From: a bacterium
GTDB taxonomy: Bacteria; UBA8248
NCBI GenBank assembly: GCA_965213625.1
Contig: CBDBZU010000004.1
Span: forward strand, 3,872,001 to 3,936,000
Length of the DNA: 64,000 bases
Reading direction: 5' to 3'
The position numbers and the translations under genes are program-made. The notes under the pieces are model-generated. The model did no database searches. It was not told where the DNA came from and worked only from the letters and a program-made list of their open reading frames with translations. Positions 20,057-33,125 of the stretch are shown here, piece after piece. Each line of letters opens with the position of its first letter. Within the stretch, counting starts at the first letter, position 1.

Positions 20057-21562
20057 TCAAAGACGTGATGTTCGCTTTTCCGCGGCGCCGAAGAACGTCT
20101 CGTGGGCCGCGGGTGAAGCACGAACTTCCTTCAGGAGGGGTATATTGTCAAACATCGTTCGCCGCTCGTCCAGAATCCTTTTGAAAGCCGGACGCAGCGA
20201 ACTGGGAAGCGGCATTCCTTTGGGAAGCTCCGCTTTCAGGGGGTCCAAATAACGTCCCCTGTGAGTGATCCGGTAATCGAGATGGGGGCCGGTGGACAAC
20301 CCGGTCGAGCCCACATAGCCGATCACATCGCCCTGAACAACCCTTCTGCCCGCGCGAATCCCGCGCGCGTACCGATACAGATGGAGATAGGCGGTTCGAT
20401 ATCCTCCGCCGTGGCGCAATTCGATTGTCTTGCCGGCCTGGTGTTTGCGGCCCGCCCAGGCGACGACCCCGTCGGCGACCGCATGGACAGGCGTGCCCCG
20501 AGGCGCGGCGTAGTCAACGCCAAAGTGGGGGCGGTAGCGCTTGAGCAGGGGATGAAAACGCCGCTTCGAGAAACGCGAACTGATTCGCGTATAGCGCAGC
20601 GGAGAACGCAAAAAGGCGCGCCTCAGGGATTCTCCCTCGAAATTGTAATACTTCCCGCCTGCGTGCTTGAAATACACTGCGGTGTGCCGCCTGTCCCCCA
20701 CGATGAACTCAGCCGCCAGAATCTTCCCGTAGCCCGTGAATTCATCCCTTAAATGCTTTCGCTCGACCAGGACTTCCACCTCGTCTCCACTTTTCAAATC
20801 CTTATGAAAATCAATAACATATGCAAATATTTCACTTAGCTTGTACACCAGTACGGGAGAGCCGCCGCTATCGGCGATGGCCTTGTACAAGGAACTGTCG
20901 ATGCGGGATTGAATGCGAACGACATCGATGGAATAGGGGATGGCCTCTTTCTTGGCTGTCATCGTCCCGCTCGGTGTTCGCCAGATTCTGAGGCGACTAT
21001 TATTGTTTAGTTGAAAAACGAATTCACGGAATTCGCCGTCTTTATTGCTTTTTCTCACCTCATACCTGCGACCCGCCCGTATGCGCGAAAAAATACGTTT
21101 ATTGCGGACGCTATCCAGGACTTTCTGAATCTCCGACCGGCGCACCTTATGCGCCATCAATACGCCGATGACGGTGTCCGCTTTAGAGAATTTGCCCGCT
21201 TCCGTTGTGAGTATTTCTTCTTCTGGAGGACTCTTGATTGGCTGATTCTGAGCGGCTTTCTTCAGTGCATCTTCTTGGGATTCCTCACGCAACTTATTCC
21301 GTGGCGCCGGGGTGAACCCGCGGCCCGGCGCGGCTTCTTTTTTCACTTTCTTGAGCGTTCGTTCTCCGTGAGACGCATCACGAGTTGCAGGAGCTTTTTC
21401 GGACGAAACCGGCGGTGGAGGCATGACGGAGCGGACGCTCAAAAAAACGCCGACGCCCAACACCAGCAACACGCCTGCCAGGCAGAACTTCGCAGAACGA
21501 GTGCCGGGTTTTCGTGTGGAGCCGGATTGCTTGACGAGACGCGCTGCCTTCCTGCGCATCAC
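20057..21562 (-). CDS. M23 family peptidoglycan DD-endopeptidase (MepM-like) with N-terminal TM
   Basis: ISSRF..RRFHP, HFGVDYAAP.GTPV, YLHL, VGSTGLSTGPHLDY. Start at GTG/ATG 21562/21559 after AAGGA. Confidence 0.92.
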   Translation of the reverse strand: MMRRKAARLVKQSGSTRKPGTRSAKFCLAGVLLVLGVGVFLSVRSVMPPPPVSSEKAPATRDASHGERTLKKVKKEAAPGRGFTPAPRNKLREESQEDALKKAAQNQPIKSPPEEEILTTEAGKFSKADTVIGVLMAHKVRRSEIQKVLDSVRNKRIFSRIRAGRRYEVRKSNKDGEFREFVFQLNNNSRLRIWRTPSGTMTAKKEAIPYSIDVVRIQSRIDSSLYKAIADSGGSPVLVYKLSEIFAYVIDFHKDLKSGDEVEVLVERKHLRDEFTGYGKILAAEFIVGDRRHTAVYFKHAGGKYYNFEGESLRRAFLRSPLRYTRISSRFSKRRFHPLLKRYRPHFGVDYAAPRGTPVHAVADGVVAWAGRKHQAGKTIELRHGGGYRTAYLHLYRYARGIRAGRRVVQGDVIGYVGSTGLSTGPHLDYRITHRGRYLDPLKAELPKGMPLPSSLRPAFKRILDERRTMFDNIPLLKEVRASPAAHETFFGAAEKRTSRL

Positions 21563-21765
21563 GATTCCTTTCGCAAGATCAGGCGGACATCGCAAAAACA
21601 GTGGGTTCTAACAGAATTCCCCATCTTTCTGTTGAGGTTTGATGATAGCAGATTTTCCAAAATTTTCAAATTTGAATTTTGAGCGCCTCCCGAATGAAAG
21701 AGCTGCGCGGGCATTCATCGACCACTCTATATTTCCTGCATCTATTTCAATTGTGCCTCTTCCAC

Positions 21766-21783
21766 GCATTTGCCCGCATTTGC
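21766..21783 (+). repeat. Left direct repeat bounding the tail module
   Basis: GCATTTGCCCGCATTTGC; 17/18 identical to 28629-28646. Confidence 0.6.
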
Positions 21784-21911: not shown

Positions 21912-22991
21912 ATGGGACATCGCTTCATGTATCAAAATCTCATCGATGACGAGACCACCATCACCGCCACTTCCGTGGATAAGGGATTCGTCGGCGCGGG
22001 CGTGCCCCGCGTTGCGGGCGCGGGCGGTTCGATGATCTTCTCGGGCGCCTACGCCGGAGAAGACCAGGAAGTCTACTCCGTGGAAATCGAAGCTCAGGGT
22101 GATGTGGGAAACGCCCGCTTCAGGTGGCGCAAGACGTCGACCCCCACGAGTGGCTGGGAAGCATCGAACATCCTCACCTCCCGGACGGATTTCTCCCTCG
22201 ATTCGGGCGTGAAGGTCCGTTTCGTAGATGGAGTGGATTCACCCGCGTTCACTGTAGGCGATCATTGGCAGGCGACTGCGAATCGTTATTTCTCCTCAAG
22301 AAGAATTTACGATCTCGATCCCGCCACAAAGGTGAGAAGCGCCTCTCCGTCCGAAGACCCCTGGTCGCTCGACCTCGATTTCGGCGCGCAGATATCTCCC
22401 GACGCATTCATCGCCCACCTCCACAATTTCCCGCCCGGAACGAATCTCAGGATCCAGGCGAACGCATCCGCGGACTGGCGCGCGCCCGCACTCGACGAAA
22501 GGCTCACCTGGCGCAGCAACACGCTCATCCACTATCTCGCCACAACGCCGCGTACGTATCGCCACTGGCGCCTTTTGGCCGAAGGCGCCGCCGCCAGCCG
22601 GGATGCGTATCTGCAAGTATCGGAAATCTACCTGGGCGGCTTTTTCGAGCCCGCCGATCACTACTGGTTCGGAAACGTGGTGGGAGAAGAATCTTTCGAG
22701 GAACAAGGACGCACGGAAAACATGGCGGAGCGTCCCGTGCTCTTGAATCGCGGCCGCACGGTCACCCTACCTTATGAGCGCATATCGGATGCGCAGCGCG
22801 AAAAATTTCTCACCATGTACCGGACGATAAAGGACATCGAAGCAGGGCGGGCGAAACCGATCTTCGTTCATCTGGACGTGGACGACCCCGCCTCGATCAT
22901 TCTCGCCCACCTTATAGGCGGTTTCCTGCCCCGCCAGACGGGCCCGGACGATTTCTCCTTTGAATTCGCACTCCGGGAAAGACTCTCATGA
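21912..22991 (+). CDS. Phage tail-tip protein, probably distal-tail (Dit)-like with an inserted beta-sandwich domain
   Basis: AGGAG RBS at 21901; 359 aa; HNF...LRIQAN..DW..P, YRHWRL and YLQVSEIYLGGFFEP motifs that I associate with proteins encoded after tape measures in siphophage-like prophages (recognised by eye). Confidence 0.6.
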   Translation: MGHRFMYQNLIDDETTITATSVDKGFVGAGVPRVAGAGGSMIFSGAYAGEDQEVYSVEIEAQGDVGNARFRWRKTSTPTSGWEASNILTSRTDFSLDSGVKVRFVDGVDSPAFTVGDHWQATANRYFSSRRIYDLDPATKVRSASPSEDPWSLDLDFGAQISPDAFIAHLHNFPPGTNLRIQANASADWRAPALDERLTWRSNTLIHYLATTPRTYRHWRLLAEGAAASRDAYLQVSEIYLGGFFEPADHYWFGNVVGEESFEEQGRTENMAERPVLLNRGRTVTLPYERISDAQREKFLTMYRTIKDIEAGRAKPIFVHLDVDDPASIILAHLIGGFLPRQTGPDDFSFEFALRERLS

Positions 22992-23521
22992 GACGCGCCA
23001 CGGATCAGGCAGTTAAGGATATTGCGGGCCACGAGGGGAAAACCGCGTTCGTCCTCTATCACATCTCCACCGCGGGCGGGAAGCGCGTGTTCTGCGGAAA
23101 GCAGGTTCCCGACTCCCTGATCGGGCAAGGCGGGAGTATCCATTTCCTCGACGGATCGAGGATTCTCGATGGCTCCCTTCTCCTAGGAGAGGGGGTGGAA
23201 GTGCTCTTAGGCGTTCACAATTGGATAGAAGACGGCGGGCGCTTCTCTCTCGGAGCGTTTCATGGCCTCTCCATTCTCGAGGCATTCAGAGAAAAGGAAC
23301 TCTCCGGCCTCTCGATTACCATCAACAACGCTCCCGACATGGACAACCACCCGCGCATGAGCCGCATCCTCGCAACAGAGCCGTTCGTGGGCGGGAGGGT
23401 CGACGTGCGCGTCGGGTTTTCAGGACAAAACATATCCGACGTTCTTTCAATTGGGAGTTTCACCATCCGCCGGATCATCGAGCGCATCGATCTGGTCACC
23501 ATTGAATGCGAGGGCAACTAG
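22988..23521 (+). CDS. Putative phage tail hub/baseplate protein
   Basis: ATGA overlap with the previous gene; LDGSRILDGS motif; beta-rich. Confidence 0.5.
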   Translation: MRRATDQAVKDIAGHEGKTAFVLYHISTAGGKRVFCGKQVPDSLIGQGGSIHFLDGSRILDGSLLLGEGVEVLLGVHNWIEDGGRFSLGAFHGLSILEAFREKELSGLSITINNAPDMDNHPRMSRILATEPFVGGRVDVRVGFSGQNISDVLSIGSFTIRRIIERIDLVTIECEGN

Positions 23522-24733
23522 ATGAGTGAGAAAACGACGGACCGTCTCTCCGATGTCTTCCATATAGGGCGCGCTTCCAGGTACGCCGACCCTGAATTCG
23601 AAGACCAGAGCCTCCCCATCATCTATGGGGATTTGACCACTCCTTCTCGCGAGAACACAGGCGTCTACGAGCCTCCGAAAATCGACACCGCAGACGACAG
23701 CGTCTACTGCGTGGCCGCCCATGAGATATCGGGCGCCGTTGCTCTTTTTGACGACGATGGCCGCATCGAGCCGGAAAACTACACCCTGGAACTCTCCCGG
23801 AACTATCAGGGCAGAGGCGAAATCGCTACGGCCACTTTCGCCGAATCGCCGAAGGGGCGCATGACCGCCGTCTGCAGAGGCAGGAAAAACGAAAGCGGCG
23901 AACTCATCGAAAACCCCGCCGAAATCGTTTATGACCTCATGACGAGCGTCTGGGGATTCAGTGGACAGGATATCGACATGCTGGCCCTCTCGCGCGCGGC
24001 AACCAGCGCGGAGGCGCTCGGCTACCGGGCGAGCGGAATCATTCTGGATGACCATGCGCCCGCCGACGTCCTCACCGCGCTCTTGGGCGATTTCCTCGGG
24101 CGGTACGAAGTCGACCCGTTCGGTCGCTTGAAAATCCACATCGCCGGAGGGGAATCTTTCGCTAACTCGCCACAAAAGGTTCTACCCTGCTTCGGCCAAT
24201 CGCGCATCGAGGCGGAGATGGCGCGAGACACCGTCATCAATCAGGCGCCGGTGCTCTATGCAAGAGATTATCCAGGCGCGCGCTACATCAAGCACGACGA
24301 CGGGAGCGCCACCGAAAACAGATCCTCCCAAAGACTCTATGGCGTCAGGAGACCTCCTCAAAGCCCGCTCAGGCTCGAATGGGTCCGTCGCGAGAGCGTG
24401 GCCGCCACGGTTCAATCGCGGATCGTGGAGCGCTATCACGAACCCACCCGCATACTCAGCATCGAGGACGGCTCTTTGAGAGCGCTCGAAATCGAACCGG
24501 ACGACTACGTGGCGTTCAGCGTGCCCTGGATGCGCTCGAAACAACTCGAACCCCTCGTGAATCAAATCGGGGAGGTAATCGAGGTGAATTACGACCTGGG
24601 CGAGCAGGGCATGGAACTCAAAATTCGGGATACCGGTTTTTTCCTGACGACTTCCTGCCTTCTGGACGGAAGCAAAACACTCGAAGGCGGCTGGCTCCAG
24701 GGTGCCGAGCGCGACGCCGCCACCTACGCATAA
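23522..24733 (+). CDS. Putative phage tail-tip (Tal/host-specificity-like) protein
   Basis: Abuts the previous stop; LPIIYGD, LIENPAEIVYDL, SQRLYG, LEIEPDDYV and C-terminal LLDGSKTLEG. Confidence 0.6.
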   Translation: MSEKTTDRLSDVFHIGRASRYADPEFEDQSLPIIYGDLTTPSRENTGVYEPPKIDTADDSVYCVAAHEISGAVALFDDDGRIEPENYTLELSRNYQGRGEIATATFAESPKGRMTAVCRGRKNESGELIENPAEIVYDLMTSVWGFSGQDIDMLALSRAATSAEALGYRASGIILDDHAPADVLTALLGDFLGRYEVDPFGRLKIHIAGGESFANSPQKVLPCFGQSRIEAEMARDTVINQAPVLYARDYPGARYIKHDDGSATENRSSQRLYGVRRPPQSPLRLEWVRRESVAATVQSRIVERYHEPTRILSIEDGSLRALEIEPDDYVAFSVPWMRSKQLEPLVNQIGEVIEVNYDLGEQGMELKIRDTGFFLTTSCLLDGSKTLEGGWLQGAERDAATYA

Positions 24734-24744
24734 AGGAGAATACG

Positions 24745-25686
24745 ATGCCCATCGGAGCCGATTTGTCCGCCCGCTACACTGAGGAAGCCATCGGCGGTCA
24801 CCACCCTACGAAAGCCCGCGTGATCGACCGCCTGGCCCTCGCCGCATTGTTTCCGGACGGAAAAATCAGGGCCAACAGACAACCAATCGAATGCGCGGGC
24901 AGGCTCGACTACGTGAACGCCACCACCCTGGCGTTCAAGCCGACGCTGGGCTCCGCTTACTATCCCGCCGTCGTCAATCCCGTGGCGGGCTGCCACGTGC
25001 CCTTCATCGATGAAGCGTCGGGAGATGTCTATTACGAGGATTTGCCATGGGAGGGAATCTCTATTTCGAACGCGGACCTCGCGGCGGACAGATCCTATGC
25101 AGTCTTCGTCTACGATGACGAAGGCGCGCTCAAGCTCGAGTTCGATAACACGGGAAGCTGGGCGTTCGACGCCGCTACGGGGCTGGCGCACAAAACGGAC
25201 GACATGAGCCGCACCCTCGTCGGAATCGCGAGAACGGACGCCTCATCCCGGTTTGTTCTGGCAAACGACGTGTATGTCCGAAGTTTCTGGAACAAGGCGG
25301 AATACGCCGCGCAGTCCAGAGGAACACTCGCCACCACCCTGTCCACCAACTGGACCTCCGTCGCCACGCACGAAATCCTGATGTGGCCGGGCCACGACGT
25401 CATCCGCCAGGAAGCCGGCGGACAAGGCTGGGTGAATTCGACGTACATTGCGGGTCTGGTGGGCCTGGATATGGATCTCGAACTGTTTGGCGGCACGGGA
25501 CAGGCCTATCCGGAAGTCGAGGTCATCCGCCTCTCGGGCAGCGAGAAAGACAACTTCTCGATTGCGAAGACGCAAATATACACAGGCGCCCTCGCCGAGG
25601 TTCACTCCACGTTCGTCTTTCGCGTGGCGCACCCGACCATCCTGAACATTGGCGACTATCTCTTCCAAAGCGTCGTTTTGATTTAG
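24745..25686 (+). CDS. Putative tail fibre/receptor-binding protein
   Basis: AAGGAG RBS; 313 aa beta-rich; GRLDYVNATTL, YAVFVYDD.G.L.LE and RTLVGIART motifs of fibre-associated proteins. Confidence 0.5.
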   Translation: MPIGADLSARYTEEAIGGHHPTKARVIDRLALAALFPDGKIRANRQPIECAGRLDYVNATTLAFKPTLGSAYYPAVVNPVAGCHVPFIDEASGDVYYEDLPWEGISISNADLAADRSYAVFVYDDEGALKLEFDNTGSWAFDAATGLAHKTDDMSRTLVGIARTDASSRFVLANDVYVRSFWNKAEYAAQSRGTLATTLSTNWTSVATHEILMWPGHDVIRQEAGGQGWVNSTYIAGLVGLDMDLELFGGTGQAYPEVEVIRLSGSEKDNFSIAKTQIYTGALAEVHSTFVFRVAHPTILNIGDYLFQSVVLI

Positions 25687-25695
25687 GAGACAGAC

Positions 25696-26391
25696 ATGGA
25701 AATCGAAGTGACCAAAGCCATCGGCCCGCACTTTCGCGACGAACTCGAAGCCGCCAGCCTCGCGCACCTCTACCTCGGCAGCGCGCACCGGCTGAAGCCG
25801 ACCATGACGCCAGACGCCGACTGGGAACCCGGACCCGGCGAGACGGAATCCGCCCGTCCTGAAATCCATGGCCCCGGCCTGGATACGTGGGTCATCAACG
25901 TGGCCGATTCGAGCACCGGGGCGCAGCGAGAAGCCGTTCTCGCCGCTCATGCCGCGCACGCGCCCGGTGGCGTCGCGCAATTCCACCGGAACCAGGCGAA
26001 AGAGAAACTCAACCTGTTCCTGAACGCCGCCAAGGCGCGAATCGTGGGCGTGCCGGTGAGCGCTCTGGGCGGCAAGTTGGCCGAATACGAGGAAAAAGCA
26101 AAGCTCATCGACGCCTGGGCGCAGGATACGGACACCGACAAGCTCGCAAAGCCTGTGTTCTTGCTCATCAAAAACAGGAAAGACGCCTATCCGGCGCGCT
26201 ACGCGACGGGTCAAAGCGTGGTGGATGAGTGGGCGGAGCGCAGAACGGCGCTGCTCGGCAAGCTCGCCTCCCTCGTGAAAATTTACGATGAATGCGTGCG
26301 CGACACCCAGGATGCCGACGTCACAACGAGCGTAGCGTCTCTGGATTCCAGACTTGTAGAAGCCGCATCCTCGTTCGACGCGGTGCGCTGA
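25696..26391 (+). CDS. Hypothetical protein, possibly a fibre-associated chaperone
   Basis: AGGAG RBS; helical C-terminal half; position after the putative fibre. Confidence 0.45.
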   Translation: MEIEVTKAIGPHFRDELEAASLAHLYLGSAHRLKPTMTPDADWEPGPGETESARPEIHGPGLDTWVINVADSSTGAQREAVLAAHAAHAPGGVAQFHRNQAKEKLNLFLNAAKARIVGVPVSALGGKLAEYEEKAKLIDAWAQDTDTDKLAKPVFLLIKNRKDAYPARYATGQSVVDEWAERRTALLGKLASLVKIYDECVRDTQDADVTTSVASLDSRLVEAASSFDAVR

Positions 26392-26774
26392 TGGCCGCGG
26401 AAGGCAACGGTAAAGGGCTCCAGATTTTCTTGTCCATCCTGAGCATCGCCGGCCTCGGGGTGGCCGCTTACACCCCGCTCTACAACCAGATCGTGAACGT
26501 GGAGACGCGTCTGGCAGCCCACATGGCCGAGCGGGGCCACCCCTGGCTCTTGGAGAAAAACGCGGGCGCGCGCGTTCGTTTCCAGGAAGTGGAAACCCAG
26601 TTCCGCGAGGCGAAGACGATCGCCGATCTCAAATTCCGTGAACTGAAAACAATTTCCGTGAAAAAAACACGCGAAGACGCGCAAGCCTTTGAACAAATCC
26701 TGCGCCGTCTGCGCGAGGTCGAAACCGCGCTCGCCAGACTCGACGAGCGCCTGAACAAGGAGGGTCGACCATGA
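26391..26774 (+). CDS. Single-TM coiled-coil protein (holin/lysis-accessory-like)
   Basis: TGATG overlap; MAAEGNGKGLQIFLSILSIAGLGVAAY TM segment followed by coiled coil ending LARLDERL. Confidence 0.5.
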   Translation: MAAEGNGKGLQIFLSILSIAGLGVAAYTPLYNQIVNVETRLAAHMAERGHPWLLEKNAGARVRFQEVETQFREAKTIADLKFRELKTISVKKTREDAQAFEQILRRLREVETALARLDERLNKEGRP

Positions 26775-26893
26775 TTCCACATCTTCTCGCTGTGCTTTTC
26801 TCGGCCGCCGCCGTCTTTTGCACCGTCGCGGCCATCGAACCGCGACTTATCACGAACCACCTGTGGCATTTCATCAACCCCTGGGCGGATTAG
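26771..26893 (+). CDS. Small hydrophobic protein (40 aa)
   Basis: ATGA overlap, GGAGG RBS; MIPHLLAVLFSAAAVFCTVAAIEPRLITNHLWHFINPWAD. Below the track cutoff. Confidence 0.45.
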   Translation: MIPHLLAVLFSAAAVFCTVAAIEPRLITNHLWHFINPWAD

Positions 26894-26945
26894 CGCGCCC
26901 CCATGCCCATTTGATCCAGCGTCTCGTACATGAGTGGGGAACTTC

Positions 26946-28628
26946 ATGCCTGAGCAAGTCCATACAATTTCGATTACGAAGAAAATCGACCTGAATTCCG
27001 GGAAAAGCCTCAAAGCGCTCGAGCGTTTCACCAAAGCGGCGGGCCAGGCGAGAATCGCCACGGAAAAACTCAACACCGAAACGCGCGGGTCCCGAACTGC
27101 GCTTCAAAAATCGAGCCGTACCTTCGTGAAGTCCTCGGAAAGACTCCGGGGAGTCGGCGTCTCGTCCATGGATGCGGCCGAGGGGATGAACTCCCTGTGG
27201 AAGAATGCGGAACAAGCCGGCGCCCGGCTCGCCTCCGGCCCGCTCGCCAGGGGCCTGGACGAGGTCAAAAGGAAAGCCACGGACCTGCCCGCCTCTTTTC
27301 AGATCGCCGGGAGAGCCGTGACCGACTTTGCCGCGGCTAGCGAGCAAACGCTCACCCGGTTTTTCACGGACGCCCTCAGTGGCAAAATCGACAGCGCCAA
27401 GGATCTGTTCAGCGACCTGAAAAACCACGCCATCGAAACGGTGCGCAACGCCGCCGCCGAGATGGCGAGTACGCACTTCATCAAACCGGTGGTGGGCGCG
27501 CTACAGAATCTGGGGCTGAACCTGCTGGGCGATCTGGGCAAGGGTCTGCTGGGTGTGTTCGGGTTCGCAAAGGGCGGTCTGGTGAAAAAGCCCACCCTGG
27601 GACTCATCGGTGAGGCGGGGCCTGAACTCGTGGTGCCGCTGGCGAAAATCGGCGGCGAGGCGGGGCTCATGCGCCTCTTCCAGTCCGTCTCTGAACTCGA
27701 AGCGGCGAACCGCCTGGGCGGCACGGCAGTCGCCACCGCGGCTGGCGAAAAGGCGAGCGCAGAGCTGGCCTCGCGGATTGCGGCGACGAAAGCGGCGGCG
27801 GCATTGCGAGTCGCCTTTTCGGCGCTGGACTTCCTGAGCGGACCCAAAACATTGAAAACAGGGGCGAATCTGGCCATCAACGTAGCGGGCGCCCTCCCCG
27901 CGCTCGCGGGCGCCACGGGGCTCGCGGCCTTCGGGCCGGCGGCGGGCGCTTTTCTGCTCACAGACGTCTTGTTCAACAAGGGAGGAGCCATCAAGCAAGT
28001 GCTCTCCTTCCTGGGCTTCAAGGGCTTCAGGGACAGGTCAACCCCATTCACCCTGGGGATAGCGAATCTCGCGCAGGCGGGCGGGCTGTATCTCGCGCTC
28101 GAAAAATTCCGCGAAACCGGCGTGGCGGAAGAAGCGCGGCTCCTCTCGCTACCAAAAGCGGTCTACGAAGGCCGGATGAGCGTGGACCCCCCATTGCTGG
28201 AAAAAGCAGGCCTCACGTTTCAGCTCATTCAGCGGGCGGCCGGAAAGGCGGGCATCTCGCCACAGGAAGGGGTGAAACGGTATTTCGGTGGATTGTACGG
28301 CGCCTATAAGAGGGCGCTGCCCGTAGTAGTGGATGAAGGCGACGCGGCGGGGCGTTTCGTCAAGCGCTCAGCACTCAGGCTCGTGGGCGAGTCGGGACCC
28401 GAGCACATCATGAACGTGAACCACCCGCAATCCATCGATTTCTTTCAGCGCGGCGTGCGGCCCATCATCCGCGACGCCATACGCGAAGAGACGGGCGGCG
28501 GCGGGGGCGACACCCACGTCTACCACATTCACATCGAAGGGAACCTGAGCGATAACCGCACGCTGGAGAAGCTCTCGCGCAAGCTCGAAGACATCAACAG
28601 GCGCCGCCGCCGCTACGGGCAGGCCTAG
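26946..28628 (+). CDS. Phage tail tape-measure-like protein (~560 aa)
   Basis: Ala-rich helical N-terminus; GFAKGGLVKKPTLGLIGEAGPELVVPL motif; Gly-rich then V/I-alternating C-terminus (GGGGGDTHVYHIHIEG). Alternative GTG start at 26934. Confidence 0.8.
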   Translation: MPEQVHTISITKKIDLNSGKSLKALERFTKAAGQARIATEKLNTETRGSRTALQKSSRTFVKSSERLRGVGVSSMDAAEGMNSLWKNAEQAGARLASGPLARGLDEVKRKATDLPASFQIAGRAVTDFAAASEQTLTRFFTDALSGKIDSAKDLFSDLKNHAIETVRNAAAEMASTHFIKPVVGALQNLGLNLLGDLGKGLLGVFGFAKGGLVKKPTLGLIGEAGPELVVPLAKIGGEAGLMRLFQSVSELEAANRLGGTAVATAAGEKASAELASRIAATKAAAALRVAFSALDFLSGPKTLKTGANLAINVAGALPALAGATGLAAFGPAAGAFLLTDVLFNKGGAIKQVLSFLGFKGFRDRSTPFTLGIANLAQAGGLYLALEKFRETGVAEEARLLSLPKAVYEGRMSVDPPLLEKAGLTFQLIQRAAGKAGISPQEGVKRYFGGLYGAYKRALPVVVDEGDAAGRFVKRSALRLVGESGPEHIMNVNHPQSIDFFQRGVRPIIRDAIREETGGGGGDTHVYHIHIEGNLSDNRTLEKLSRKLEDINRRRRRYGQA

Positions 28629-28646
28629 GCATTTGCCCGCAATTGC
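28629..28646 (+). repeat. Right direct repeat bounding the tail module
   Basis: GCATTTGCCCGCAATTGC immediately after the tape-measure stop codon. Confidence 0.6.
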
Positions 28647-28777
28647 ACGCATCCCACCCCTGCATTTCCCCGCAAATTCCCGCATTTCCCCTCGTTAATT
28701 TACGGAAATTTATCGAATAACCCCGTGAATTTATCGATATTTATCGAATTGTTTGGAAACTCTTAAGGTTTCCCGCT

Positions 28778-30040
28778 TCACCCCAGCGGGTCGAGGCCCA
28801 GCACGGCGCGGCGCACGAGTTCCATCCCGTAAATCGGCGCGCGCGATTGCACGAACTGCTCGTTCCCCCCGAAGCTCGACGAGAAGGTGAAGGCGTCGTC
28901 TCCGGTGTCGAGCGCCATGTGGGTGTCGCCCAGGGCGGGCGCGCGGCGGGAATTTTCGGGTTCGATGTTCTCCGGCGGATTGGGGCCGAAGACGGCCAGC
29001 CCTAAGTCGGCGCCGGATTCCTCACGAATTCTCTCCGCGAGCGCTTTTGCGAAATCCTCAGGGCTTGCTCCCGCATCCACGCCGAACATGCGCGCGAGTT
29101 CCTCAGCGTGCAAGCCGACGACGCCGCGCTTTAAGAACTGCACGCGCTCGGGCCAGGCGTTCAGCCGCTGGATCAAAGCCCCGCCCGTGTTCGACTCGAC
29201 GATCGCGATGGTCTTGCCGCTCTGGGCCAGCACACGCGCCAGCGTCTCCTCGAGCGTCGCGTTCCCGGTGGCGTATACGGCCGAGCCGAGAATCTCGCGC
29301 ACCTTCACCTCGAGACCCGCGATCAGGTTGTTCGCCTCTTCGATGTCTTTCGCGCGCGCGGTGATGCGCACGTCCACCTGGCCGGGGTGGGCGAGCACGC
29401 CGATGCTCGGGTTGACCGACTCGCGGAACAGGTCCGATATCATCTCGTCCACGCGCGATTCGCCGAGGCCGCATGTCTTCAAGACCTTCGTGCGGATCAC
29501 CTCTCCCAAATCGAATTTCTCCTGCAGGATGGGCACCGCGCACTGGGTGATGATGTAGCGCATCTCGTGTGGCACGCCCGGGCTCACGATGATGACCCCG
29601 TTTTCGTCCTCGCACATGAAACAAGGCGCCGTTCCGCGCGGGTTCTCGATGGGCGTCGCGCCTTGGGGTATGTAGGCCTGCTTCTTGTTGTTGTCGCTCA
29701 TATGGAAGCCGCGGCGGCTGAAATACGCGCTGATGTAGTCATACAGGTCCTGGCGGAATTCGAGCTCCACGCCCATCACCTTGGCGCAGGCCTCCCGCGT
29801 CAGGTCGTCCACCGTGGGGCCGAGCCCGCCCGTGGTGATGACCACCTGGGAGCGCTCGTGCGCCTGCTTGATGACGCCCGCAATCCTGTCCAGATTGTCG
29901 CCGACGGTAGTCTTGAAAAACATATTGACGCCTATCGACTTGAGCTGGTCTGCGATGAAGGCGCTGTTGGTGTCGATGAGGTCGCCGAGGAGCATCTCGG
30001 TGCCGATGGCGACGATTTCGCCGCGTACAGGTTCCGCCAT
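28778..30040 (-). CDS. cinA: CinA family protein (MoeA-like domain plus PncC-like domain)
   Basis: IGTEMLLG.LIDTN, TTGGLGPTVDDLTRE, N.GTAP, PGVPHEM, ESNTGG. Confidence 0.92.
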   Translation of the reverse strand: MAEPVRGEIVAIGTEMLLGDLIDTNSAFIADQLKSIGVNMFFKTTVGDNLDRIAGVIKQAHERSQVVITTGGLGPTVDDLTREACAKVMGVELEFRQDLYDYISAYFSRRGFHMSDNNKKQAYIPQGATPIENPRGTAPCFMCEDENGVIIVSPGVPHEMRYIITQCAVPILQEKFDLGEVIRTKVLKTCGLGESRVDEMISDLFRESVNPSIGVLAHPGQVDVRITARAKDIEEANNLIAGLEVKVREILGSAVYATGNATLEETLARVLAQSGKTIAIVESNTGGALIQRLNAWPERVQFLKRGVVGLHAEELARMFGVDAGASPEDFAKALAERIREESGADLGLAVFGPNPPENIEPENSRRAPALGDTHMALDTGDDAFTFSSSFGGNEQFVQSRAPIYGMELVRRAVLGLDPLG

Positions 30041-30065
30041 GAATGGTTCCTTTATGCAGAAAATC

Positions 30066-30190
30066 AAAAAAAATGACCCCCGTAGGGAGTCGCATCTTAG
30101 GGGAGCGCTCCCCTACCGACAAGGGCGGGAGACTCAAGGAGGCCGTGTAAGACCCGAGAGGGGACGTGGAAAAACCCTCCTCAGGTGGAC
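30066..30190 (-). ncRNA. Candidate small RNA or structured leader with intrinsic terminator upstream of cinA
   Basis: TAGAAT (-10-like) at 30200-30195, three hairpins, then GACTCCC-TAC-GGGGGTC followed by A and T8. Confidence 0.4.
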
Positions 30191-30232
30191 TTTGATTCTA
30201 CCCCCCTCACATCAAGTAGCCGACACCCCAAA

Positions 30233-30330
30233 CCCTCACCCTGAGTAGCGGCGAAGCCGCGTATCGAAGGGCTGCCCCGAGCCAGTCCTCTCCCTCGATA
30301 CGGCGCTTCGCGCCTACTCGGGATGAGGGT
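30233..30330. repeat. Palindromic intergenic repeat, copy 2 (same family as 1048-1196)
   Basis: CCCTCACCCTGAGTAGCGGCGAAGCCGCGTATCGAAGGG...CCCTCGATACGGCGCTTCGCGCCTACTCGGGATGAGGG. Confidence 0.85.
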
Positions 30331-30343
30331 GGGTATTGTGGGA

Positions 30344-31069
30344 TTATTCCACAAGCCCCGCGAGGGCGAGCCAGCGCTCGAACCAGCGCGCAGCGCGCCG
30401 GTTCAAAGTTTCGAGATGCTCCGGCGCATCGCGTAATATCGCCTCGGGGTCCGCGTCCGAGCGCGGGGAGGCCATATCGCCCTCGAACGCCTCCAGCCAG
30501 GTGGTGATGTCCGCCATCCCGGTTTCCAGGTGAAACTGGAAGGCGTAGGCGCGCGCCCCCCACCGGAACGCCTGGTTCGGGTACCGCGCGGAAGACGCGA
30601 GATGCACCGCGCCCTCAGGAATATCGAACGTATCCCCGTGCCACTGGAATACGGGGAAGGTCGCCTCCTCATCCCCCAGCAGCGGGTCTCCCTGCGCCTC
30701 GGGCGTCAGGTCCACCGGGAACCAGCCGATCTCCTTTTTCTCCTCTCCCGGATACACGCGGGCGCCCAGCGCCGCCGCCATCAATTGCGCGCCCAGGCAG
30801 AGGCCGTAAACGGGAAATCCCGCATGAAGCACCTCGCCCAGGAAACGAAGCTCATCGGCCAGCCAGGGGTATTTCTCAGCCTCGTAAACGCCCATCGGCC
30901 CGCCCAGGACGACAATCGCCTCGGTGTCCTCGAGCTCACCCAAAGAGTGCGGGAGACGCTCCCCCTTGTGGAGGGCCAGGTAGCGCGCGGGAATGCCGCG
31001 CTGCGCGAGCACCTCTTCGAGCAGCGAGAGCCTCTCCACGTCGACATGTTGAAGCGCCAGAACGGACAA
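30344..31069 (-). CDS. Type 1 glutamine amidotransferase (GMP-synthase-like)
   Basis: LQHV, LGGPMGVYE, GLCLGAQL, FQWHGDTF, FQFHLE. TTG start after GAGGA; the track extension runs into a MITE. Confidence 0.9.
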   Translation of the reverse strand: MSVLALQHVDVERLSLLEEVLAQRGIPARYLALHKGERLPHSLGELEDTEAIVVLGGPMGVYEAEKYPWLADELRFLGEVLHAGFPVYGLCLGAQLMAAALGARVYPGEEKKEIGWFPVDLTPEAQGDPLLGDEEATFPVFQWHGDTFDIPEGAVHLASSARYPNQAFRWGARAYAFQFHLETGMADITTWLEAFEGDMASPRSDADPEAILRDAPEHLETLNRRAARWFERWLALAGLVE

Positions 31070-31088: not shown

Positions 31089-31424
31089 AGGTTGTTGAAA
31101 AGCCTTTGCCAGGAGAGTACCCCCCTTGTCGGGGGCTTATCTTTCATCTCTTCGTCGGGAGGCATTGCCTTTTGCGGGAAGGCCGTTTTCGCGCGAATCC
31201 CCGCCTCCCCTCGTCGCAATCAACCCCCCCTACCCCCCCTTGTCAGGGGTCAAACGCGAGTGAGGAACGAGCGTTTGCATAAGCCATTGATGAGAAACAC
31301 ATCGGTACGCAATTTCTCGCTCATCGCTCGAAATTGACCCCTGACAAGGGGGGGTAGGGGGGGTTGCTTTTCCAGTCGAAAGGGGTGTCCTCTCTACCCC
31401 CGAAAGGAACTTTTTTAACAACCC
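31089..31424. mobile_element. MITE-like element with IS1182-like terminal repeats, copy A
   Basis: Ends AGGTTGTTGAAAAG / CTTTTTTAACAACCC; internal CCCCCCTACCCCCCCTTGTCAGGGG foldback; homologous to 32934-33125. Confidence 0.65.
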
Positions 31425-32933: not shown

Positions 32934-33125
32934 GGGTTTGTTGGAAAAGCCTTTGTTAAGGGAATAACCCCCCAACCCCCCTTGTCAGGGGGGCTTTTCT
33001 TCCACCTCCTCGTCGAGGTTTTTTTTTTCTTACCCCCCTGTCAAGGGGGGGTAGGGGGGGTTGCTTTTCCAGTCGAGAGGGGCGTCCCCTATACCCCCAT
33101 AAAAGAGGCCTTTCCCAGCAACCCC
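32934..33125. mobile_element. MITE-like element, copy B
   Basis: Ends GGGTTTGTTGGAAAAGCC / GGCCTTTCCCAGCAACCCC; shares GGGGGGTAGGGGGGGTTGCTTTTCCAGTCGA.AGGGG with copy A. Confidence 0.65.

Follow-up and report, generated by a model that had tools for sequence, protein, structure and literature searches.

A phage-derived tail-tip cassette in a Nitrospinota chromosome as probable part of a dispersed, vertically inherited particle resembling a gene transfer agent

The 64,000-nucleotide stretch of DNA analysed here at its full length (hereafter the window; G000:C4:3872001-3936000, on a contig of 4.13 Mb) contains a cassette of eight genes, g1-g8, whose products are predicted from gene content and from a structural model to form the distal tail of a siphovirus-type particle. 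The genome from which it derives, G000, has a completeness of 96.6% and a contamination of 5.2%. The source names attached to near-identical proteins assign the organism to Nitrospinota ('Nitrospinae'). With a probability of roughly 0.8, the cassette constitutes the tail-tip locus of a dispersed Nitrospinota particle that is inherited vertically and resembles a gene transfer agent (GTA). The original prediction had favoured one locus of a dispersed, host-maintained particle over a decaying prophage, and the head modules, synteny and ratios of nonsynonymous to synonymous substitutions (dN/dS) reported below agree with it. Judged from these comparisons, the most likely function of the system would be that of a GTA of independent origin. 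A fuller scenario was given a joint rating just short of an even chance: it combines an independently evolved Nitrospinota GTA of family-wide origin, three separately promoted modules in the genus, a tandem-repeat promoter element that is specific to the genus and occurs at some 50 host loci as well, and DNA exchange among uncultured bacteria. Genomes are labelled G, fetched loci L, and open reading frames (ORFs) of the head locus h.

The original prediction had called for a genome-wide search for orphan head, terminase and tail-tube clusters, and such clusters were found. Searches by tblastn with ORFs flanking distant homologues of g1 and g3 led to C4:1.63-1.65 Mb on the same contig, about 2.2 Mb from the tail locus. 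Two modules were located there by PHROG and Pfam matches (A and B in Table 1, the cassette being module C). Module A encodes a large terminase of the gpA type (TerL; phrog_675, E 9e-48, with the terminase ATPase domain PF05876) and a portal protein (phrog_10963, E 3e-47). Module B encodes, in this order, a major capsid protein (MCP) fused to a protease (Phage_capsid_4; PF25209, E 2e-44; phrog_29592, E 3e-130), a 236-aa protein, a neck protein (phrog_5, HK97-gp10-like), a 177-aa protein, the tail tube (PF18906, Phage_tube_2) and a 140-aa protein. G000 has a single copy of the capsid gene, whose true start is probably a TTG codon at 1642704. Metabolic genes fill the 6.8 kb between the two modules, among them two for luciferase-like monooxygenases, one for a dehydrogenase and one for a deaminase. 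Host genes lie between them throughout the genus, and cupin and F420-ligase genes flank the head locus. The HK97-type families for capsid (PF05065), portal (PF04860) and terminase (Terminase_1, PF03354) gave no match in G000, with control genomes matching; a reading of this result as a lack of head genes was overturned by the head genes of other families.

Within G000:C4:1631179-1632881 (L031:3179-4878), the large terminase is encoded by two ORFs, one for an ATPase of 352 aa and one for a nuclease part of 215 aa, which are joined by an ATGA overlap. This split is conserved in the genus and was also seen in G048 and G055. A 466-aa ORF on the plus strand (h14; C4:1641012-1642412, L031:13012-14409) was rejected as a particle gene, because it contains stops in most relatives and is retained where the element has been lost. 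A 411-aa ORF of G055 matches the minus strand of this region at 50% identity, and the plus-strand ORF is probably spurious.

Within the genus, g3 was found once in 20 of the 22 other species (66-86% identity) and the capsid gene in the same 20 (77-91% identity), both being missing from G009 and G010. Both loci were retrieved from the positive genomes that had long contigs (13 of 20), and these supply the genus loci referred to throughout. The order of g1-g8 was identical in all 13, and the head locus including its metabolic insert was syntenic in 13/13, so that the conserved synteny anticipated for relatives was borne out. In complete genomes, the distance between the head and tail loci ranged from 0.26 to 2.4 Mb. 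In G010 and G009, the M23 peptidase gene adjoins cinA directly (gaps of 233 and 680 bp, respectively), and both the capsid-to-tube genes and the terminase/portal genes are gone, G010 retaining a 26-aa portal relic together with the upstream motif (see below). In a tree of host proteins, G010 fell within the crown clade (support 100) and G009 branched off separately and deeply, so that the joint loss of all modules took place twice independently. Taken together, the comparisons indicate that the three modules constitute one phage-derived element that is vertically inherited and under purifying selection.

This shared history bears on the proposal that the cassette is a stand-alone, headless tail device, either an F-type tailocin or a surface appendage, to which we assign next to no probability. 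The cassette does have its own upstream motif, and the window holds no head genes, as had been pointed out before; but the tail tube also lies elsewhere, so that no self-sufficient tail cluster with a tube is present, and the sole tube gene found sits with the capsid genes. Moreover, in sister genera the cassette forms the 3' end of a head-to-tail gene string. Because the capsid, portal and terminase genes are conserved, co-occur and are co-lost with the cassette, the tailocin and appendage alternatives of the original prediction were not supported. A 'headless' tail cassette among core genes should thus prompt a genome-wide search for the remaining particle.

Selection was assessed by pairwise Nei-Gojobori estimates of dN/dS in six genome pairs. 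Pairs with dS <= 0.03 were dropped, as were tblastn segments containing stops (1/48 tail, 2/54 head and 14/90 host gene-pairs). Tail genes gave a median of 0.23 (45 pairs), head genes one of 0.17 (49 pairs) and host flank genes one of 0.13 (58 pairs), well below 1 as the original prediction required of a maintained system. For the terminase and portal genes, values of 0.08-0.26 were obtained in most pairs, and both TerL halves are under purifying selection (0.12-0.41). Trees of concatenated tail, head and host-flank proteins were built with a 'quick' method without mixture models from 13 of the 20 positive genus genomes, with G009 and G010 added to the host tree. They had the deep split and most clades in common, and the phage-derived genes are thus broadly congruent with the flank genes.

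These values make it very improbable that an old prophage, fragmented by rearrangement and not yet decayed, has left the modules behind as inert remnants. Such remnants would be in keeping with the decay seen in relatives from other genera (G023, G045, G056 and G057) and with the split terminase. However, some 17 genes are intact in 13/13 species at a synonymous divergence of up to 0.3-0.6 per site and a dN/dS of about 0.2, whereas the doubtful neighbouring ORFs h12, h13 and h16 gave a median of 0.84 by the same method. The joint loss in two independent lineages and the conserved upstream motif likewise argue against inert remnants.

The cassette itself was as originally described: all eight genes lie on the plus strand, with intact frames and tight packing, between genes identified by Pfam as an M23 peptidase gene and cinA. 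Consecutive genes overlap by ATGA at 22988 (g1/g2), by TGATG at 26391 (g5/g6) and by ATGA at 26771 (g6/g7), or abut at 23521/23522 (g2/g3), and GGAG-type ribosome-binding sites precede g1, g4 and g7. The GC content resembles that of the surroundings. Since g1-g8 are conserved without in-frame stops in 13/13 genus loci, with the median dN/dS given above, they represent real genes rather than GC-rich chance frames. Pfam returned no significant family for any of the eight products and PHROGs no match for g2-g5; a scan for sigma-70 promoters and terminators across the cassette gave nothing above chance.

The siphovirus-type assignment draws mainly on g8 and g3. The tape-measure motif that had been noted in the DNA (FGFAKGGLVKKPTLGLIGEAGPELVVPL) lies in g8 and has no second occurrence when the genome is translated in six frames; the GGLVKKPTLGLIGEAGPE region of g8 is matched by four tape-measure PHROGs besides the one listed in Table 1, and such matches span residues 78-263. 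For g3, an AlphaFold model derived from 16 sequences reached a predicted local distance difference test (pLDDT) score of 71, with low confidence for residues 233-283. When it was compared with the Protein Data Bank (PDB) by Foldseek, the best match was the T5 tail tip (7zqp_b, E 3e-7), followed by JBD30 (8rk3_b), Chi (8vjh_A), the lambda tail tip, Sf11 and Mu-type structures (3d37/3cdd). On the strength of this model, g3 is assigned a siphophage baseplate-hub fold, in line with the hub and Tal resemblances originally proposed among the ORFs of the cassette. The hub fold is shared with T5 pb3 and the JBD30, Chi and lambda tail tips at E 3e-7 to 8e-4 and a probability of 1.0. The sequence identity to these hubs is 8-13%, and g3, at about half their length, attains target-normalised TM-scores of 0.2-0.32.

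The remaining products were characterised mostly by context. The g1 homologue in L024 belongs to phrog_8610 (E 5e-17), a PHROG of unknown function, and follows directly after the tape-measure gene. An F5/8 type C (discoidin) domain was weakly matched in 5/16 members of the g1 family, an AlphaFold 2 model of g1 was unusable (pLDDT 48), and sequence-profile searches of the PDB with g1 and g3 returned nothing below E 0.4. Gene position and the weak carbohydrate-binding-domain signal tentatively suggest that g1 could be Dit. Homologues of g2 (dN/dS 0.08-0.42) sit between those of g1 and g3 in L022 and L024. In g4, only the first 30-40 residues are conserved directly after g3 in the viral contigs L079 and L091, and homologues in G041 and G043 share 37-41% identity. 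Since conservation confined to the N-terminus is the usual pattern of exchangeable receptor-binding proteins, g4 is a probable receptor-binding or fibre protein; Atlas searches gave viral clusters as leads only, one of them with an Mtd second domain. A weak Atlas lead was likewise obtained for g5 (a cluster with XkdW in 15% of its members). The g6 product matches phrog_34951 (E 3e-4), a PHROG of unknown function, at a dN/dS of 0.11-0.21, and g7 shows 75-90% identity in 12/13 loci and a partial match in the 13th; both are read as small membrane proteins. The fibre, chaperone and holin-like labels of the original prediction are tentative for g4-g7. In six loci (L014, L015, L018, L019, L020 and L021), one to three tandem genes are inserted between g7 and g8. 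They encode proteins of 184-217 aa with lipoprotein-type signal peptides and are absent from the G000 window.

Table 1. Modules, cassette genes and adjoining features. Coordinates are window positions unless preceded by C4.
Feature	Coordinates	Strand	Basis or remark
Module A: two-gene large terminase and portal	G000:C4:1631179-1634233		PHROG/Pfam
Module B: protease-capsid fusion, connectors, tail tube, one small gene	C4:1642704-1648637		PHROG/Pfam
Module C: g1-g8 cassette	21912-28628	+	
19-bp tandem motif CGCATTTGCCCGCATTTGC	21765..21783	+	129 bp upstream of g1
g1, 359 aa, Dit-position protein, phrog_8610 family	21912..22991	+	PHROG E 2e-4
g2, 177 aa, conserved tail-tip protein between g1 and hub	22988..23521	+	homologue context
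g3, 403 aa, predicted baseplate hub, Tal N-terminal-type	23522..24733	+	AlphaFold 2 and Foldseek
g4, 313 aa, probable receptor-binding/fibre protein	24745..25686	+	N-terminus conserved after g3
g5, 231 aa, genus-restricted	25696..26391	+	no Pfam/PHROG match; conserved in 13/13 genus loci
g6, 127 aa, one N-terminal membrane helix, then coiled coil	26391..26774	+	read from sequence
g7, 40 aa, small hydrophobic peptide	26771..26893	+	read from sequence
g8, 560 aa, tape-measure-like	26946..28628	+	phrog_1535 E 5e-8; alternative GTG start 26934
M23 peptidase with Csd3 domain, host flank outside element	20057..21595	-	Pfam PF01551 E 4e-29
Intergenic dispersed repeat with further CGCATTT units	28628..28777	.	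55 blastn matches in G000
cinA, host flank outside element	28778..30067	-	Pfam

Across the family, g3 was matched in 32/42 genomes and the capsid gene in 34/42. Both were found in 31/42 and neither in seven, and the four discordant genomes carry fragments. In other genera the element is contiguous and lies beside the same F420-ligase genes. The order in G041 is MCP-h17-h18-h19-tube-h21-g8-g1-g2-g3-g4, and the layouts of G055 and of the complete genome G048 at the same F420-ligase locus are similar. A g8 homologue is found directly upstream of g1 in G024, G041 and G043 (in G024 and G043, the g8 end). These comparisons point to the contiguous layout as the ancestral one. In the genus, the tail segment would then have moved to the M23-cinA site, and g8 from before g1 to behind g7; re-opening of a circular intermediate at the junction of g8 and g1 would account for the permuted position of g8. 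Homologues of g5, g6 and g7 were not detectable in the contiguous elements of other genera, in which membrane-plus-coiled-coil ORFs precede the tape-measure gene, so that the move of the g6-g7-g8 block as such is something we infer. The genera would thus document successive steps of domestication, from contiguous elements through invasion by host genes and splitting to joint loss or decay.

Two features of the contiguous elements were recorded in addition. In genus g17 (G041-G044), the protease and capsid parts match as two separate stretches in 4/4 genomes, which suggests that two genes stand in place of the protease-capsid fusion. In G041, G043, G048 and G055 (L055-L063), a conserved gene of 430-460 aa (978 aa in G043) is found at the tail end of the element. 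By eye its product appears to combine GAF and PP2C/SpoIIE-type phosphatase domains, and it could regulate the element. G000 holds only a paralogue of this GAF/phosphatase-like gene with 29-38% identity (C4:1404404-1405621).

The modules of the genus have a 19-bp motif (CGCATTTSCCCGCATTTGC) in common, located 85-130 bp upstream of g1, the terminase gene and the capsid gene (the last two at G000:C4:1631076 and 1642554). It was found upstream of g1 in 13/13 loci, of the capsid gene in 13/13 and of the terminase gene in the 4/4 loci that reach far enough. Genome-wide, 57 sites were detected, two of them in the window, for which a chance expectation of about 0.02 per 64 kb applies; the second window match (28628-28646) has two mismatches. 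The motif also precedes g8 in five loci that have additional DNA behind g7 and before g8 (L014, L015, L019, L020 and L013), and in the first four of these lipoprotein genes separate g7 from the g8 that has its own motif. It is absent from the element loci of other genera and from the empty sites; G010 keeps it along with the portal relic. We regard it as a candidate promoter-associated element of all three modules, and co-regulation of the modules through it is plausible. The modules would be co-expressed and would assemble tailed particles that transfer packaged host DNA to related cells, with the cassette setting the specificity of adsorption. At most sites a -10-like sequence (TATGAT, GAGAAT or TATCCT) follows 24-30 bp later. 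Many sites precede no obvious ORF, and among the loci examined the motif is genus-specific. No site was found beside tRNA genes or the 16S gene.

Relatives of the cassette genes are carried by phages and prophages. In L024, from G027 of the same class, g1-, g2- and g3-like genes come after a tape-measure gene that encodes 752 aa (phrog_991, E 2e-61). In G032, also of that class, three genes lie side by side: one tape-measure/tail-lysin-like, one g3-like and one for tail-fibre assembly. When IMG/VR was scanned with a g3 alignment, 29 viral loci were obtained (L064-L092), with a g1 homologue upstream of g3 in all 29, a detectable g2 between the two in 12 and homologues of the h17-h19 connectors in four. 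The uncultured IMG/VR siphophages and the G027/G032 prophages share the g1-g2-g3 block with the cassette at 26-38% identity, carry connector, capsid and portal homologues on the same contigs and have the order tube, tape measure, g1, g2, g3. They differ in being contiguous, whereas the modules of the genus lie 0.26-2.4 Mb apart with g8 behind g7. In run X5 ('viral metagenome'), near-identical, short contigs of low depth extended over the cassette as well as the host flanks. X5 gave no sign of a free phage with the cassette, and packaged host DNA is not separable there from carry-over of cellular DNA. The small-share runs X6 and X7 contained diverged relatives only.

GTAs are recognised by phage-derived structural genes that reside in the host chromosome, cannot transmit themselves and are inherited vertically under selection, and further by particles that package essentially random host DNA, by its transfer to recipient cells and by control through host regulators. 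Here, head and tail structural genes of phage origin were found in the chromosome, and they are inherited vertically under purifying selection with minor tree conflicts within the crown clade. The element appears non-self-transmissible, its modules being dispersed and the nearest integrase lying at least 77 kb away, replication and repressor families being outside the search. No integrase was found within about 75 kb of any module, and the distance to the nearest such genes is about 77 kb for the head locus and 172 kb for the tail locus. Since no single piece of DNA carries all genes, the particles would be unable to propagate the element. The contiguous block and integrase of an intact or recently inactivated prophage were not found, flanking direct repeats being outside the search. 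Nor is the PF05065 capsid or PF04860 portal of the RcGTA lineage present, the capsid being of family PF25209.

Like RcGTA of the Alphaproteobacteria, the element comprises a chromosomal, vertically inherited set of head and siphovirus-tail genes at more than one locus, apparently lacks integrase and replication genes, evolves under purifying selection and is degenerate or lost in some lineages. It differs in its independent origin, in its PF25209 capsid fused to a protease in place of the HK97-type PF05065, in its gpA-type terminase split in two, and in its host phylum. The main structural string is here broken into three modules, and the system is known from its genes alone. To our knowledge, independently domesticated GTAs number only a handful, namely the types of Rhodobacter, Bartonella, Brachyspira, Desulfovibrio and Methanococcus. 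Another case that is unrelated to these and comes from an uncultured lineage would, if true, offer a comparative test of phage domestication, and it might be a route by which these bacteria exchange genes. Capsid, hub and 19-bp motif would serve as correlated markers for finding such elements in metagenomes. The dispersed phage-derived layout is best known from GTAs, and none is reported for Nitrospinota among the records that the literature search listed. That search, judged partly from the listing, returned no paper in which GTAs are connected with Nitrospina, Nitrospinae or Nitrospinota. In the part of the matched paper that was available, the GTAs are alphaproteobacterial; the reference list of 10.1101/2022.02.18.481119 cites Lang et al. 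2017 for RcGTA-type GTAs.

The foremost rival to a transfer function is that the same dispersed particle has been selected for killing or competition, as a PBSX-type killer particle in which packaged DNA is incidental. PBSX of Bacillus is likewise a domesticated, host-kept tailed particle that cannot propagate itself, but it is contiguous and contractile-tailed, whereas the genes here are dispersed and specify a siphovirus-type tail, with a T5/lambda-like hub, a Phage_tube_2 tube gene and, in the neighbourhood of the modules, no sign of a sheath gene. All structural evidence fits a killer particle equally well, and specificity modules such as g4, of which phages conserve the N-terminus alone, are found in bacteriocins of phage origin as well. 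Purifying selection on terminase and portal, less needed by a pure killing device, speaks for transfer, although PBSX also keeps a terminase and a portal. Sequence separates neither function from the other, and we rate killing as unlikely.

Several observations weigh against the proposed GTA-like particle. The particle, its packaged DNA, transfer and transcription are all predicted from genes alone. The split of TerL might mean that the terminase is impaired, and neither a small terminase nor an endolysin was identified near any module, a statement confined to these neighbourhoods as no genome-wide family search was made. The downstream flank (cinA) differs in 4/13 genus loci (L009-L012), and the tail, head and host trees conflict within the crown clade, inside one clade of four species (for example in how G022, G008, G006 and G004 pair). 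Decay or loss was recorded in G023, G045, G054, G056, G057, G047, G009, G010 and all four genomes of genus g22, and probably also in G049, so that selection is not universal. In G023, g3 extends across three frames and the portal gene has a frameshift, G045 shows a fusion of the capsid gene with the end of g3, and G056 and G057 have truncated capsid genes. G048 gave split matches for g2 and the terminase. Finally, about 54 other sites of the 19-bp motif exist and related units occur in dispersed intergenic repeats; the motif may therefore mark a common promoter or repeat rather than a dedicated regulon.

The flanks of the cassette belong to the host. Upstream, yceD-ppx-hexapeptide transferase is kept in 13/13 genus loci and the M23 gene adjoins the cassette in 10/13; cinA is directly downstream in 9/13, one of these being a partial match only. 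The M23 peptidase was rejected as the lysin of the element, because it stays beside cinA where the cassette is absent and is not adjacent to the cassette in 3/13 loci. No tRNA gene was found in the window. Palindromic dispersed repeats occupy intergenic positions 28629-28777, 30200-30345, 31220-31420 and 32990-33110 of the window, with 37-70 blastn matches each in G000. In the metagenome runs X6 and X7, bins holding three of the palindromic repeats reached a depth of 1000-2900 over a background of 20-100, and the depth was up to 481 at 28621-29221. The palindromic repeats look like repetitive extragenic palindromic (REP) elements or elements of the miniature inverted-repeat transposable element (MITE) type.

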